From positions 5,222 to 69,221 of the forward strand of contig CAYYYH010000001.1 in the NCBI GenBank assembly GCA_964476395.1: a stretch of DNA of 64,000 bases. Direction: 5' to 3'. The position numbers were made by a program, and so were the translations under genes. The notes beneath the pieces are model-generated. The model was not told the origin of the DNA. It worked only from the letters and a program-made list of their open reading frames with translations, and ran no database searches. Shown here one piece after another: positions 21,631 through 29,192 of the stretch. Origin of the DNA: an uncultured Candidatus Saccharibacteria bacterium (lineage in GTDB: Bacteria; Patescibacteriota; Saccharimonadia; Saccharimonadales; Saccharimonadaceae). Position 1 is the stretch's first letter; each line of letters opens with the position of its first letter.

Positions 21631-22815
21631 TTAATCCCGCGCAAACAAATCACGCGTATAGACGATATCCGCCACATCACGAAGTTGATCTTCTAAGCGA
21701 TTTGCGAGAATAAGATCGCTACGTTCTGCAAAACTGTTAAAATCGTTTTCGACTTCAAATCCAGCAATTTTTTTCTCAGAGAGCGTTGGCTCGTAGATTA
21801 TTACTTCAATTCCCTCACCGCGAATATATTTAATAATATCCTGAATCGCAGCCGAACGGAAATTGTCTGAGCCACTTTTCATAGTTAGCCTGTACACTCC
21901 GACCGTCTTTGGCTTGCGTTTGCAAACATCCTTTGCAATAAATTCTTTACGAGTTTTATTCGCCTGAACAATAGCTCTAATAATATCCTGAGGCACATTA
22001 CGATAATTTGCAAGCAGTTGCTTCGTATCCTTAGGCAAACAGTATCCGCCATAGCCAAAAGATGGATTATTATAGTGTGCCCCAATACGAGGATCAAGAC
22101 AAACTCCTTCAATAATAGCTTTTGCATCAAGATTTTTAACCTGAGCATAAGTGTCTAGTTCATTGAAATAGGAAACGCGCAACGCAAGATAAGTGTTAGC
22201 AAATAGTTTCACGGCCTCAGCCTCGGTCGGTGGCATAAACAAAACTGGTACATCTTTATTCAGTGATGCTTTTTGCAAAAGTTTCGCGAATGTCTTAGCT
22301 TGCTTAGTCTCGTCACCAACAATAATTCTTGCCGGATAAAGATTATCATACAACGCTTTGCCCTCGCGCAAAAATTCCGGCGAAAAGAAAATGTTTTTAA
22401 TGCCATATTTTTCGCGGACTTTTTCGACATATCCAACCGGGATCGTAGATTTAATAACCGTCGTTATGTTGTCGTCCTTCATTCGAATGACTTTTTCGAT
22501 AATATCTTCAACAGCAGAAGTATCAAAAGTATTACTATCGTCATCGTAATTAGTTGGCGTAGCAATAATTACAAACTCAGCTCCTTTCATGGCGTCTTTA
22601 AAATCAATCGTTCCACGAAGATCTAGTTTTCGTTTTCCGCTTTTCGCTTCATCAAAATATTTTTCAATATATTCATCCTTAATTGGTGAAACAAAATCAT
22701 TGATTTTATCAACCTTTTCCTGATGTATCTCAAGCAAAACTACTTCATTTCTTTGGCTTAACAACGTGGCTAAAGACAAGCCAACATAGCCACCACCCGC
22801 TACAGTTATTTTCAT
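21631..22815 (-). CDS. ugd: UDP-glucose 6-dehydrogenase
   Basis: GGGYVG, FSPEFLREG, YNNPSFGYGGYCLPKD, SDNFR. Confidence 0.96.
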   Translation of the reverse strand: MKITVAGGGYVGLSLATLLSQRNEVVLLEIHQEKVDKINDFVSPIKDEYIEKYFDEAKSGKRKLDLRGTIDFKDAMKGAEFVIIATPTNYDDDSNTFDTSAVEDIIEKVIRMKDDNITTVIKSTIPVGYVEKVREKYGIKNIFFSPEFLREGKALYDNLYPARIIVGDETKQAKTFAKLLQKASLNKDVPVLFMPPTEAEAVKLFANTYLALRVSYFNELDTYAQVKNLDAKAIIEGVCLDPRIGAHYNNPSFGYGGYCLPKDTKQLLANYRNVPQDIIRAIVQANKTRKEFIAKDVCKRKPKTVGVYRLTMKSGSDNFRSAAIQDIIKYIRGEGIEVIIYEPTLSEKKIAGFEVENDFNSFAERSDLILANRLEDQLRDVADIVYTRDLFARD

Positions 22816-22879: not shown

Positions 22880-23920
22880 TTAAAAGTAAAATTCTTTGTA
22901 CCACTCGGCAAATTTTCGAAGACCATCACGAAGTGAAGTAGTAGGCTTAAAGCCAAAATCTTTTTCTAGCGCGCTGGTATCCGCATAAGTCACCGGCACA
23001 TCACCAGGCTGCATTGGCACGAGTTCCTTATGTGCTTCAAAATCATAATCTTCCGGTAACACTCCAGCCCGAATTAATTCTTCTTGCAAAATCTGCACGA
23101 AATCTAGCAAATTCTCCGGGCTCGAATTGCCTATATTATATACAGCATATGGTGCCAAAGGCAAACCGTCCTCACCGTCCTTTTTTTCCGGCGCCTTCGC
23201 CATCACTCGCATCACGCCCTCCACGATGTCGTCAATGTAAGTAAAATCTCGCTTACAATTTCCGAAATTAAATATCTGAATCTTCTCACCTTTAATTAAC
23301 TTATTGGTGAAGCCAAAATACGCCATGTCCGGACGCCCCGCCGGCCCATAGACCGTGAAGAAACGCAAACCCGTAGACGGTATATTATATAGTTTTGAAT
23401 ATGCATGCGCGAGAAGCTCATTGGATTTCTTGGTCGCCGCATATAGACTCACCGGATTATCCACCTTGTCTTCCGTATCAAACGGCACCTTCTTATTTCC
23501 ACCATATACGGACGATGACGAAGCATACACTAAATGCTCCACCGGATAGTGCCGACACGCTTCCAATATGTTATAAAAGCCAATCAAATTCGCCTCAATA
23601 TACGCATCCGGATGATCAATTGAATACCGCACCCCAGCCTGCGCCGCCAGATTCACCACAATCTCCGGATGATATTTTTCAAACAACTTGTTTACGGCTT
23701 CCTTATCCGCTAAATTTCCTTTAATGAATGCAAAATTCTTGTATTGCTCCAGATCCTTCAACCGATATTCCTTCAATTTCACATCATAGTAATCATTTAC
23801 ACTATCAAATCCAATCACCTTAGCCTTCGGGTTTTCTTCGCACACTCGCTTCACGAGCGCCCATCCGATAAACCCCGCCGCCCCCGTAATCAAAATTGTT
23901 TTACCATTAAAATCACTCAT
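22880..23920 (-). CDS. NAD-dependent epimerase, UDP-glucuronate 4-epimerase-like
   Basis: TGAAGFIG, LAAQAGVRYS, ASSSSVYG, YAATKK, GRPDMAYF, MQPGDV. Confidence 0.92.
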   Translation of the reverse strand: MSDFNGKTILITGAAGFIGWALVKRVCEENPKAKVIGFDSVNDYYDVKLKEYRLKDLEQYKNFAFIKGNLADKEAVNKLFEKYHPEIVVNLAAQAGVRYSIDHPDAYIEANLIGFYNILEACRHYPVEHLVYASSSSVYGGNKKVPFDTEDKVDNPVSLYAATKKSNELLAHAYSKLYNIPSTGLRFFTVYGPAGRPDMAYFGFTNKLIKGEKIQIFNFGNCKRDFTYIDDIVEGVMRVMAKAPEKKDGEDGLPLAPYAVYNIGNSSPENLLDFVQILQEELIRAGVLPEDYDFEAHKELVPMQPGDVPVTYADTSALEKDFGFKPTTSLRDGLRKFAEWYKEFYF

Positions 23921-25313: not shown

Positions 25314-25352
25314 TTGTCTCACTCTCCCCACGACGTTTTCACTAACCACCTC

Positions 25353-25381
25353 TTGACTTTTTCAACCACTCGCGCTATAAT
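25353..25381 (+). promoter_or_regulatory. Promoter with no downstream ORF (drives candidate sRNA)
   Basis: TTGACT-17-TATAAT. Confidence 0.8.
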
Positions 25382-25387
25382 AAAACC

Positions 25388-25439
25388 ATATTCGGGGATA
25401 CCCGTCCACCCTAATCGAAAGATTAGGGGACATTTTTTT
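25388..25439 (+). ncRNA. Candidate ~52-nt small RNA convergent on the PemK-like gene
   Basis: Promoter, hairpin CGGG-GATA-CCCG, terminator GTCC(A)CCCTAATC-GAAA-GATTAGGGGAC plus T7 reaching the PemK stop codon. Confidence 0.6.
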
Positions 25440-25833
25440 AGCAAAACAAATTGTGAAAACCAATCCTTATTGTTTGTAAATCAGAATCTGGCAATGCCCC
25501 CATTTTCTTATAAAGCCTAGAAACACTAAAAACTCGCGCCTGTGCAAGAACGGCATATTCCTGTCGATTTTTAAATACAAATGGAGCATACCAGCTGCCA
25601 TTATGCTCCTGTGAAGTTAGCGGGACGCCCATAAAACCATACTTGCTTAACTTTTTCAAAACAACGACAGGCCGAGCGAATGTTTCACTTTTCCCGTTAA
25701 TCTCTACACCGACGCTCTCTCCAACAGCGCACCAATATACATCTCCATCCTTAATATCACGCAGGACACCTTTTCCATGTAAATCCGACTTCACCACAAT
25801 CCACTCCTCAAAATGTTTTTCTTTTTCTTCCAT
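25438..25833 (-). CDS. PemK/MazF-like endoribonuclease toxin (no adjacent protein antitoxin)
   Basis: GDVYWCAVGESVGVEINGK...RPVVVLKK...GVPLTSQ...LAQARVFSVSRL; SD AAGGAG. Confidence 0.8.
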   Translation of the reverse strand: MEEKEKHFEEWIVVKSDLHGKGVLRDIKDGDVYWCAVGESVGVEINGKSETFARPVVVLKKLSKYGFMGVPLTSQEHNGSWYAPFVFKNRQEYAVLAQARVFSVSRLYKKMGALPDSDLQTIRIGFHNLFC

Positions 25834-25845
25834 AGAACTCCTTAA

Positions 25846-25923
25846 TTTATTTCCAACTACCCTACCACACCCACTCCGCTAAATCAACCCAACCAACACT
25901 CTTATGCCAATCCACCCCTTAAA
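25846..25923. repeat. 78-bp direct repeat, copy 1
   Basis: 72/78 identical to 28106-28183; C/A-rich on plus strand, non-palindromic. Confidence 0.92.
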
Positions 25924-25934
25924 TTTATGTCCGC

Positions 25935-27231: not shown

Positions 27232-27807
27232 TCATTCTTCCTCGCCTATCACCAAATCATTTTCATAAATCAAATTGATAATTATCGCAGAAAAATCAAT
27301 CATTTGTTCAGCATCCTTCTTTGTTAAAAACTTAATCTCGTGGGTAGCATCGTTGCCTTTCTTTCGAATTATGTCTACCCACTTCTTTGAACCCCTCGGA
27401 ATATAATTCTCCTTATCAAGATAGTCGACGTAGTCCATGAAACTCAAACCTTCTTTTGCACCCAAATTTACACAGATGTTCATCAAAAGCTTCCTACAAC
27501 ACATTCCCGCAGCAGTAAAAGCATTCACGCTATAGGCCGCTCTGGCCTCTTCATATATTTTTTTCACTTCTAGCGGAATTGGTAAATCAAAATACTTTCC
27601 ATACTTCGGACCAGGAAATTGTTTAACCCCGGACAGCATATTAAAAAAAGTTGGCGACAAACAATTATGACAGATATAAATCTTAAGCTTTGGGTATTTA
27701 CTATTAAAATAGCCAACCTCTGAACATATTTCCCTACCACAATACGAACAGACATAAGTTTTACTATCTATTTTTTCCGAACCATACCAACCAGTAGAAT
27801 TACTCAT
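27232..27807 (-). CDS. DUF4145 (HEPN-like) protein with N-terminal Zn finger
   Basis: Start likely ATG 27807 after TGG-TATAAT; CSYC/CHNC, YEEARAAYSVNAFTAAGMCCRKLL, RKKGNDATH. Confidence 0.8.
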   Translation of the reverse strand: MSNSTGWYGSEKIDSKTYVCSYCGREICSEVGYFNSKYPKLKIYICHNCLSPTFFNMLSGVKQFPGPKYGKYFDLPIPLEVKKIYEEARAAYSVNAFTAAGMCCRKLLMNICVNLGAKEGLSFMDYVDYLDKENYIPRGSKKWVDIIRKKGNDATHEIKFLTKKDAEQMIDFSAIIINLIYENDLVIGEEE

Positions 27808-27824
27808 ATCACATATTATACCAC

Positions 27825-27880
27825 AAAAAAGAGGGCGATGTCCCGCATATATCCAATGCAGGTCCTGCCCCCCATCGCCC
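27825..27880 (-). ncRNA. Candidate ~55-nt structured small RNA downstream of CdiA-CT-like gene
   Basis: Promoter TTGACT(27906-27911)-16-TATAAT(27884-27889); outer stem GGGCGATG/CATCGCCC, inner hairpin CCTGCAT/ATGCGGG, then T6. Confidence 0.6.
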
Positions 27881-27894
27881 CTCATTATAGCGCA

Positions 27895-28110
27895 TCATTT
27901 CATAAAGTCAAGTATTTTTCCTCTCTTAGAAACAACCATCAAACGCTGTAAACTTTTTGATCGTTCGAATTCCCGCCGTAATTCATTTGTGCACTTTGAT
28001 TGATGACGCTTTGTCCTGCGTAAATCCACAATAACATAACGAGACTGTTTCACCGCTTTCTGAATCGTATTCGCCATGAGATATTTACTTTCTCCAATCG
28101 GTGATTTTAT
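27895..28110 (-). pseudogene. 5'-truncated CdiA C-terminal-like (tRNase-type) nuclease
   Basis: EIKSP...NTIQKAVKQSRYVIVDLRRT...LMVVSKRGKILDF matches C-terminal half of solo CdiA_C-like nucleases as I recall them; sequence upstream of EIK is the 78-bp repeat. Confidence 0.6.
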
Positions 28111-28183
28111 TTCCAACCACCCTACCACACCCACTCCGCTAAATCAACCCTGCCATCACTATTATGCCAATCCACCCCTAAAA
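28106..28183. repeat. 78-bp direct repeat, copy 2
   Basis: 72/78 identical to 25846-25923. Confidence 0.92.
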
Positions 28184-28198
28184 TCGAAACCCGAACCC

Positions 28199-28227
28199 TT
28201 GACTTTTTCAACCTCCCAACCTATAAT
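28199..28227 (+). promoter_or_regulatory. Promoter of abiF-like module
   Basis: TTGACT-17-TATAAT; shares CTTGACTTTTTCAACC-N7-CTATAATAAAA with 25352-25385. Confidence 0.85.
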
Positions 28228-28233
28228 AAAATC

Positions 28234-28287
28234 AACATCTCCTCCAGGCTTGGTTACGGCCAGCACACTTGGAGGAGTTCTGTTTGT
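28234..28287 (+). ncRNA. abiF-type structured leader RNA (candidate RNA antitoxin)
   Basis: Stem CTCCTCCAGG(28239-28248)/CTTGGAGGAG(28268-28277) enclosing TGGTT-AC-GGCCA hairpin, between promoter and Abi gene. Confidence 0.65.
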
Positions 28288-28295
28288 GAGGTAAA

Positions 28296-29192
28296 ATGCT
28301 TAAGGAATTCAAGACAATCGAAGATCAAATTGAGTTACTTAAATCCCGCGGCCTAAACATAGACGATGAGGATATTGCAAAGAAGTTCCTATTAGAAAAC
28401 AACTACTACCGCATAAGCGGCTATTCATTAACACTCCGCACAAACAATACTTTTCACGAAAATGCAACCTTTCAAAATATCATTGATATTTATAATTTCG
28501 ACCATGAACTACGAAACATATTGATAAAATATATTGAAATCATTGAAGTTAAGCTAAAATCGGTATTTGCATATGAGTTTTCAAAACAATATGGCCCAAC
28601 CAGTTATTTGGACCCTAATTATTTTTCCGACCCTATAAAGCACCAGGAAATCATACTAAAATCTGAAAAACTAAAAGTGCAACGACTCCCGCACGAAGCT
28701 TTTCTTAAACACTTTATTAACGAGTTACAAGAAACCGTACCACTATGGGCGTACGTCGAATTATTTTCCATTTCGGATATCTCTTTATTTTATAAAATAT
28801 CGCCAGAACAAATTAAAAAATCCGTCGTCTCAGCGTTCAATATAGAAATTGAAAAATATAAACTATTAGAAAGCTTTATGCATAGCATCACGATACTCCG
28901 AAATCTTTGCGCCCACGATAGTAGAATATTCAATCGACTATTCGAGCAAAAACCTCGACTTAGCACAATAGAAAAAGCTTGGCTAAGACAGAAAGAAGAT
29001 GGCAACATAGATAACGAACATCTTTTTAGCTTCGTACTAATAATGAAAAGACTACTCGACCCCACTCAGTTTACCCAAATGGTGAAAGACATAGAGAAAT
29101 TACATCAGGAAATTCCTTTTGTCAAAATGAGCCACTACGGTTTCCCTGACGATTGGCAAGAATTATTCACAAACACTTTGGAGGCTCCCTAA
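28296..29192 (+). CDS. Abi_2/AbiF-family HEPN abortive-infection RNase
   Basis: FKTIEDQIELLKSRGL, NYYRISGY, IYNFDHELR, PLWAYVE, HEPN motif RNLCAH. Confidence 0.9.
   Translation: MLKEFKTIEDQIELLKSRGLNIDDEDIAKKFLLENNYYRISGYSLTLRTNNTFHENATFQNIIDIYNFDHELRNILIKYIEIIEVKLKSVFAYEFSKQYGPTSYLDPNYFSDPIKHQEIILKSEKLKVQRLPHEAFLKHFINELQETVPLWAYVELFSISDISLFYKISPEQIKKSVVSAFNIEIEKYKLLESFMHSITILRNLCAHDSRIFNRLFEQKPRLSTIEKAWLRQKEDGNIDNEHLFSFVLIMKRLLDPTQFTQMVKDIEKLHQEIPFVKMSHYGFPDDWQELFTNTLEAP

Follow-up and report, generated by a model that had tools for sequence, protein, structure and literature searches.

An intact AbiF protein behind a divergent AbiF-associated leader RNA in a Candidatus Saccharibacteria genome

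Introduction

Can the minimal genome of an episymbiotic bacterium carry a HEPN ribonuclease toxin that is held in check by an RNA made from its own leader? The question is raised by an abiF gene and the region directly upstream of it in a stretch of 64,000 nucleotides (nt) from an uncultured Candidatus Saccharibacteria bacterium (GenBank assembly GCA_964476395.1, contig CAYYYH010000001.1, positions 5,222 to 69,221 of the forward strand), which is referred to below as the window. An initial annotation, made from the sequence of the window, had proposed a functional abortive-infection module at this place. AbiF and its noncoding RNA (ncRNA) form a type III toxin-antitoxin system that has been proposed as the ancestor of Cas13 (PMC12373285, PMC12737573, PMC13064643), and the remarks of the annotation on a family leader RNA and on Cas13 ancestry agree with this literature. 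For two members of the family, these reports describe that the ncRNA lies upstream of abiF and is co-transcribed with it, a terminator before the gene ends most transcripts, the ncRNA binds the AbiF dimer tightly and blocks its HEPN site, and mutation of the R and H residues abolishes toxicity. A homodimer with a composite active site, non-specific cleavage of single-stranded RNA (ssRNA) and toxicity are described for PbAbiF and AbiFCd (PMC12373285, PMC12737573).

Here, we have analyzed the protein, the leader and the surroundings of this locus, which is likely to be a single-copy AbiF-AbiFr type III toxin-antitoxin or abortive-infection module. The anatomy of the locus, the family, fold and catalytic residues of the protein, the conservation and covariation of the RNA, its single copy and the accessory status of the gene are established for the window. 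The kind of module is already known and ordinary, and its RNA is a variant that goes undetected by the public RNA catalogue.

The AbiF protein

The coding part of the locus comprises the following features:

28296-29192, plus strand: abiF gene, 298 amino acids (aa) plus stop, intact; Abi_2/AbiD/F HEPN ribonuclease (predicted toxin)
28401-28424, plus strand: codons of NYYRISGY, residues 36-43, with N36, Y37, Y38, G42 and Y43 invariant
28899-28916, plus strand: codons of R202-N-L-C-A-H207, the HEPN motif, which aligns with R...H in PbAbiF

Both motifs that had been annotated, NYYRISGY and RNLCAH, were found again in this intact gene, and its assignment to the Abi_2/AbiF HEPN family was borne out by several independent comparisons. 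The Pfam family Abi_2 (PF07751) matched at 1.8e-45 and 155.9 bits against a cut-off of 25.6, covering profile positions 2-184 of 184; the best PADLOC model was AbiD (8.3e-83, 276 bits, positions 4-275 of 277); and PHROG 2158, an 'abortive infection resistance protein', matched at 3.7e-67. The only real match among solved structures was PbAbiF (8VZ6; E 2e-22), in which residues 3-288 of the window protein align with residues 9-294 and RNLCAH (202-207) falls on RNSCCH, the catalytic motif of that structure. An AlphaFold2 model built from 25 homologues reached a predicted local distance difference test (pLDDT) score of 91.8, and a Foldseek search with it returned 8vz6_A as the only significant match in the PDB (TM 0.80/0.80, E 4.9e-13), the next one having an E-value of 0.55.

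R202, N203 and H207 are invariant among the 25 aligned homologues, and the window protein carries every residue that is invariant across them. The homologues are 290-305 aa long, so that 298 aa corresponds to full length; the description of the protein as compact does not hold, since this is the normal size of an AbiF (the PbAbiF chain has 300 aa). Judged by its sequence and its modelled fold, the gene clearly encodes an intact Abi_2/AbiD/F HEPN protein. The equivalents of R202 and H207 are needed for toxicity in AbiFCd and PbAbiF (PMC12373285).

A conserved leader RNA in front of abiF

Between the promoter and the start codon of abiF, the following elements were found:

28199-28227, plus strand: sigma-70-type promoter, with -35 TTGACT at 28199-28204, a 17-nt spacer and -10 TATAAT at 28222-28227; 11 of 12 matches
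28234-28286, plus strand: AbiFr-like leader RNA, 53 nt, consisting of an AACAU tail, outer stem, variable apical part, GCACA and U-rich tail
28239-28248, plus strand: 5' arm of the outer stem (CUCCUCCAGG), from RNAfold and covariation
28250-28263, plus strand: inner hairpin UUGGU / GCCAG with a UACG loop, from RNAfold; replaces the CUCU-containing apical loop of most relatives
28263-28267, plus strand: GCACA, nearly invariant in the subfamily; counterpart of the 3' internal loop in the Rfam abiF motif
28268-28277, plus strand: 3' arm of the outer stem (CUUGGAGGAG), from RNAfold and covariation
28278-28286, plus strand: U-rich tail (UUCUGUUUG) that adjoins the stem; resembles a terminator
28288-28291, plus strand: Shine-Dalgarno GAGG, 4 nt before the ATG; equivalent GGAG or GAGG in homologues

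The promoter, which had been called perfect, is near-consensus. Shuffled sequence yields promoter-like sites as often as the region itself does (5 found versus 5.1 expected), and the support for this one is therefore positional: in every homologous locus, a -35/-10 pair ends 6-8 nt before the conserved AACAUC 5' end. The ATG lies 62 nt from the inferred transcript start at about 28234, and the ribosome-binding site begins 11 nt past the stem. Only 18 nt separate the hairpin from the ATG, which leaves no room for a separate promoter, and abiF must therefore be read through the RNA. A 72-codon frame at 28076-28294 was rejected as a gene; it begins upstream of the promoter and overlaps the conserved RNA. 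The longer homologues in databases (332-380 aa) begin well upstream of the conserved ATG, as was seen directly for locus L048, and judging from the sequences the extra N-terminal part of these proteins probably extends across the leader.

The 10-base-pair (bp) stem with an internal hairpin reported by the initial annotation was confirmed: a GC-rich helix pairs 28239-28248 with 28268-28277 and encloses the hairpin at 28250-28263. Essentially the same leader precedes about 30 homologous genes, with a promoter ahead of it and the start codon right after it, in Lachnospiraceae, Oscillospiraceae, other gut Clostridia and Saccharibacteria-like contigs, and six viral contigs carry it together with abiF. 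These leaders share a plan in which an AACAUC tail is followed by a C-rich arm whose last bases are CAGGC, the variable apical part, GCACAC, the G-rich arm and finally GUUYUGUU, which stands nearly unchanged directly after the stem in 27 of 27 leaders.

The paired positions covary. In an alignment that includes the window, four of the ten pairs of the outer stem change on both sides, a result reached by none of 500 shuffles and compared with 0-1 pairs in slid controls; in an alignment without the window, the outer stem and inner hairpin together show such changes in 7 of 14 pairs (again 0 of 500 shuffles), the slid controls giving at most 4 pairs with far lower scores. Locus L047, where AGG/CUU is replaced in a coordinated manner by GAG/UUC, further backs the innermost three pairs of this helix of 10 bp. 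A covariance model, R2, was built from 22 leaders excluding that of the window and its near-twin L033. In the 64-kb window it gave one match, at exactly 28234-28286 (54.2 bits, E 1e-13), and this was its sole match in the 677-kb genome, in which neither extra copies nor a tandem array of the leader RNA could be found. The sequence comparison thus supports the view that the leader is a conserved, covarying RNA of the AbiF-associated kind, as had been annotated.

The apical part is the one freely varying part across the family, with insertions of 4 to 20 nt. A CUCU loop is present in 24 of the 27 gene-linked leaders of the subfamily and absent from those of the window, L033 and L043, which have a hairpin in its place. 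The Clostridia leaders retain CUCU with a GNRA-type or longer hairpin inserted into the loop, and in L048 the hairpin is inserted amid CUCUCA...CGAU. Some well-formed phage copies of the RNA have a loop that lacks CUCU as well.

Relationship to the Rfam abiF motif and points against a functional module

Several results weigh against reading the locus as a functional AbiF-AbiFr module. The folding energy of the leader (-21.3 kcal/mol, z -1.38; RNAfold) is not significant in itself, since 14 of 200 shuffles fold as well, and the reality of the structure therefore rests on comparison. The Rfam abiF motif (RF03085, gathering cut-off 37 bits) gave no match at the gathering threshold in the window, no match at E<=10 in the 501 nt of 28000-28500, and no match at the leader when the whole genome was searched. 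The RNA of the window lacks CUCU, which is conserved in the Rfam consensus too, so its binding could be altered. That such a module can decay in this lineage is shown by L033:2939-3450, from a Saccharibacteria metagenome-assembled genome. A window-type leader is intact there, but the abiF gene, which shows 78% identity over residues 1-107, carries a stop at codon 16 and breaks off after about residue 95, followed by an acyltransferase gene. Finally, no RNA sequencing run is listed among the runs holding this DNA.

A search with the Rfam model had been put forward as a check on the initial annotation, and it found no leader match. RF03085 also gave 0 matches over 18 homologous loci, so that its failure covers the whole subfamily rather than the window copy alone; and since it misses 18 of 18 such loci while the subfamily model matches strongly, the failed check does not refute the reading. 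In the 37-position consensus of RF03085, an outer stem of 6 bp and an inner stem of 3 bp are combined with an A bulge; the inner stem closes an 11-nt CUCUCAACGAU loop, and the 3' internal loop reads CAAAUC. Of this architecture, the window leader shows the outer stem and a CA-rich stretch on the 3' side, which can pair into the stem; the CUCU loop is missing. The likeness extends to the location just upstream of abiF, an outer stem with a C-rich and a G-rich arm followed by an A, a G-C inner pair, and a sister leader (L038) with a CUCUCA..GAAGC loop. The differences are that the 3' segment reads ACACUU, whose CUU can pair with AGG and lengthen the stem, and that a hairpin replaces the apical loop. 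In a 76-nt search, the L038 leader aligned to RF03085 positions 1-37 at 15.2 bits, far below the cut-off; it shares the GCCUCUCA..GA.GC.CA signature with RF03085, and the Saccharibacteria-like loci L038, L041 and L044 all carry the CUCUCACGGAA loop and align to the same positions. From these alignments, it is well supported that the window leader is a divergent relative of the abiF motif that falls outside the formal Rfam definition.

Other RF03085 matches were set aside as apparent noise: one in the same genome (L001, 14.7 bits) lies off the AbiF leader, and those in Faecalibacterium genomes (L036 and L037, 20.7 bits) are not on the AbiF leaders there. A near-threshold match of 36.8 bits, with its own promoter and U-tract, occurs in Faecalibacterium (L035:1501-1537), where the gene downstream of it is tyrosine-integrase-like rather than an Abi_2 gene.

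Comparison with known systems

One of the closest characterized systems is PbAbiF-AbiFr of a Prevotellaceae bacterium (8VZ6), which resembles the window module in family, length (298 versus 300 aa), fold (TM 0.80) and sequence match (E 2e-22), in the alignment of the catalytic residues (R202/H207 in the window, R210/H215 in PbAbiF) and in having a short hairpin ncRNA directly upstream. The two proteins are 24% identical in the structural alignment. On the RNA side, the window copy has an extended 10-bp outer helix, an inserted apical hairpin and no CUCU.

AbiFCd-RCd22 from the Clostridioides difficile prophage phi027 is a type III toxin-antitoxin system in which the catalytic residues bear the same numbers as in the window, R202 and H207 (PMC12373285). 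Its order of promoter, ncRNA, partial termination and co-transcribed abiF resembles that of the window, for which termination is assumed by analogy. RCd22, 100-130 nt long, begins 168 nt upstream of the ATG and combines two Rfam-type abiF motifs with a separate terminator (PMC12373285), whereas the window has a single variant motif that starts 62 nt before the ATG and whose own stem and U-tail seem to serve as terminator. The window module is also harbored by a saccharibacterium, outside a prophage.

With the lactococcal AbiD/AbiD1/AbiF group, the window protein shares the Abi_2 family and AbiD as the best PADLOC model; a further likeness is that conservation is higher upstream than in the gene, a feature reported for that group (PMC13064643). 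An RNA antitoxin upstream of a ribonuclease toxin, with termination between the two (for the window by analogy), is likewise a feature of ToxIN/AbiQ, from which the window differs in having no tandem repeat array and a single RNA copy in both window and genome. The toxin fold of ToxN/AbiQ is unrelated to HEPN. CRISPR-Cas13 (type VI) was considered and rejected: such systems are recognized by two HEPN domains, a large effector and a repeat-spacer array, whereas the window protein has 298 aa and a single Abi_2 domain, no repeat array was found around abiF, and the leader RNA occurs once in the genome.

Distribution and genomic setting

The uL2 protein of the host is 88-93% identical to proteins named Candidatus Saccharibacteria, and the genome has a size of 677 kb at 98.9% completeness; the initial assignment to a host of the candidate phyla radiation (CPR) was therefore right. 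The sequencing runs (DNA) that contain this stretch are animal gut metagenomes. The abiF protein had no match in 36 genomes of the same genus and 24 of the same order, and Pfam Abi_2 was detected in none of the 400 other genomes sampled from the phylum; abiF is thus an accessory gene that is rare in the phylum. Its nearest relatives (71-75% identical) are found in Saccharibacteria-like contigs, in several of which a polysaccharide cluster has abiF, oppositely oriented, right behind its UDP-glucose dehydrogenase gene, and the next clade (56-61% identity) belongs to gut Clostridia. The two clades are well separated in the tree; because its single outgroup is attached by a very long branch, no direction of transfer is claimed. 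Two related contigs have a further defense-type gene behind abiF in the same orientation, Abi_C in L044:4910-5725 and, in L043:1736-3961, an AAA_13 ATPase gene with which the abiF stop overlaps; the window has neither partner.

The neighborhood of abiF includes the following features:

21631-22815: ugd (UDP-glucose dehydrogenase), polysaccharide cluster
22880-23920: epimerase gene, after ugd
25438-25833, minus strand: PemK/MazF gene
25846-25924 and 28106-28184: 79-nt direct repeat, copies 92% identical and 2260 nt apart
27232-27885, minus strand: DUF4145 protein, 217 aa (Pfam 1.6e-14; C-terminal domain), with an N-terminal CxxC...CxxC region
27895-28134, minus strand: CdiA_C-matching open reading frame (ORF), 79 aa (Pfam CdiA_C positions 13-81 of 81, 1.5e-08)

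The gene sits in a variable segment with sugar-nucleotide genes (ugd and the epimerase gene) on one side and a flippase of the polysaccharide cluster on the other, and no integrase, tRNA or other mobility gene was found near it. About 4.4 kb of cargo lies between the epimerase gene and abiF, encoding a HATPase-domain protein, PemK/MazF, a 413-aa protein with no family match, the DUF4145 protein, which is PD-T7-4-like, and a 79-aa remnant of a CdiA C-terminal (CdiA-CT) toxin. The DUF4145 protein matches PADLOC PD-T7-4 weakly (1.1e-07) and also PHROG 1305, and its gene is possibly a second defense gene adjoining abiF. In the CdiA_C ORF, only the C-terminal part of the profile is matched and the GTG start falls within the 79-nt repeat, and the ORF is probably a truncated toxin remnant. 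The two repeats flank the 413-aa gene, the DUF4145 gene and this remnant, with 14 nt between the end of the second copy and the abiF promoter. This promoter has a counterpart at 25352-25388, with 84% identity over 37 nt, which drives a short two-hairpin RNA that runs to about 25440. The RNA has a U7 tract at its end and is convergent with the PemK/MazF gene, meeting it at the stop; it has no sequence kinship with the abiF leader.

Almost all genes of the window lie on the minus strand, and GC skew on the plus strand is strongly negative across 1-64000 (about -0.15 to -0.38 per 2 kb), so that abiF is transcribed against the prevailing bias. It had been described as the only plus-strand gene of an island at 18-45 kb, and this holds even across 13-48 kb, where it is the sole plus-strand ORF of at least 110 aa once those nested in a larger minus-strand ORF are excluded. 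Its GC content is 35%, compared with 41% for the window.

Lone RNAs in phages and downstream of abiF

About 20 IMG/VR viral contigs carry a well-formed leader RNA without an AbiF homologue in the fetched stretch (L050, L052, L054, L056, L057, L060-L062, L064-L068, L070-L075, L105, L125 and L127). Most of these RNAs are followed by a U-rich tail and several are preceded by a visible -10 box. Packaging genes adjoin some of them, namely an HNH endonuclease gene 20 nt downstream (L071), TerL (L065) and portal genes (L060 and L050). These lone phage RNAs are candidate antitoxin decoys. In a scan of viral sequences for window-type loops, 111 stretches were retrieved and 80 were scored with R2, of which 3 scored as real motifs and the remaining scored ones were dismissed as chance matches.

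In ten Clostridia loci, the abiF stop is followed after 10-80 nt by a second abiF-like hairpin of a different kind (L003:3946-3994, L004:3906-3954, L009:3901-3950, L012:3892-3941, L013:3905-3954, L014:3873-3920, L015:926-974, L019:3893-3943, L023:860-908 and L024:3897-3944). A -10-like box comes first, then a CUCCCACGAGCC arm, GGCGCAAUACUGUGGG beyond a short loop, and a strong terminator, and the whole looks like a separate small-RNA gene. Nothing of this kind was found after the abiF gene of the window, where model R1 gave no match at E<=1.

Proposed mechanism and alternative explanations

The order of elements suggests how the module might work. A strong constitutive promoter would start transcription at about 28234, and the first ~50 nt of the transcript would fold into the AbiF-associated hairpin with its 10-bp outer stem, GCACA and U-rich tail. 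Most transcripts would probably end at this tail, giving an abundant small RNA, and a minority would read through into abiF; the stem and U-tail of the motif itself, 18 nt before the ATG, would then serve as the terminator, which would make this the shortest form of the module. An AbiF dimer would build its HEPN active site from R202 and H207, and the small RNA would bind each monomer and block that site. If the supply of RNA failed or the RNA was displaced, for example during phage infection, free AbiF would cut ssRNA non-specifically and growth would be arrested. The leader is accordingly a probable antitoxin RNA as well as an attenuator. Termination at the U-rich tail would be expected by analogy with RCd22 (PMC12373285), and RNA-protein binding, toxicity and an anti-phage effect of the window module are likewise inferred from the studied systems. 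A scan for consensus terminators did not flag the stem followed by UUCUGUUUG, presumably since its criteria allow only loops of 3-8 nt.

The leader might instead do nothing more than control expression in cis, as an attenuator or an AbiD1-like translation switch, with no antitoxin acting in trans. The U-rich tract directly after the stem and the closeness of the stem to the Shine-Dalgarno sequence (11 nt) would fit such a role, and there are precedents in the C. difficile leader, which reduces abiF transcription 17-fold in cis (PMC12373285), and in a phage protein that binds lactococcal abiD1 mRNA and activates AbiD1 translation (PMC13064643). We nevertheless consider cis control alone improbable: in both studied systems, the RNA also binds and neutralizes the protein in trans (PMC12373285, PMC12737573), the single-stranded AACAUC, GCACA and GUUYUGUU segments are conserved beyond the need of a plain terminator, and the lone promoter-bearing RNA copies downstream of abiF and in phages fit action in trans. 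It is even less probable that the pair is a decaying or silenced relic, in which the gene is open, the RNA has drifted with the loss of CUCU and defense has ceased. Such a history would account for an apical loop unlike that of 24 of 27 relatives, for the low GC content of abiF relative to the window, and for the truncated gene with its codon-16 stop in L033, which among the Saccharibacteria loci sharing this loop type is the nearest. It agrees poorly with a full-length ORF that has kept all residues invariant in 25 homologues and with the intact promoter, Shine-Dalgarno sequence, outer stem and conserved single-stranded segments; moreover, the altered loop belongs to the freely variable part of the family, and well-formed phage copies lack CUCU as well.

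A further explanation concerns function rather than integrity, namely that the module acts mainly as an addiction module that stabilizes the variable cargo of the polysaccharide locus and not in phage defense. Its position in a variable polysaccharide segment together with PemK/MazF, the PD-T7-4-like DUF4145 gene, the CdiA-CT remnant and the 79-nt direct repeats, and the same relative position in other Saccharibacteria-like contigs, speak for this idea; the lack of any integrase, tRNA or other mobility gene nearby speaks against it, and addiction and phage defense are not mutually exclusive roles. As a predominant function, addiction seems to us a minor prospect. An AbiF-AbiFr toxin-antitoxin or abortive-infection module remains the favored explanation. 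Within it, the apical part of the RNA may conceivably determine specificity and escape, with the phage RNAs acting as decoys that neutralize the AbiF of the host and the UACG hairpin of the window as the outcome of an arms race, which is a speculative and rather unlikely extension.

Implications

The variants of the apical part, from the 11-nt loop through GNRA or UNCG hairpins to inserts of up to about 20 nt, offer material for finding out which parts of the RNA are read by the toxin; if the arms-race idea were true, toxin-RNA pairs would diversify to stay insensitive to phage decoys. Separately from that idea, the module would mean that an episymbiotic CPR bacterium with a 677-kb genome maintains an RNA-gated suicide defense. 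RF03085 overlooks a well-conserved leader subfamily in gut Clostridia, Saccharibacteria and their phages, which implies that Rfam-based surveys undercount AbiF antitoxin RNAs. For Saccharibacteria themselves, the intact AbiF-AbiFr pair implies that minimal episymbiont genomes can carry RNA-gated HEPN toxins.

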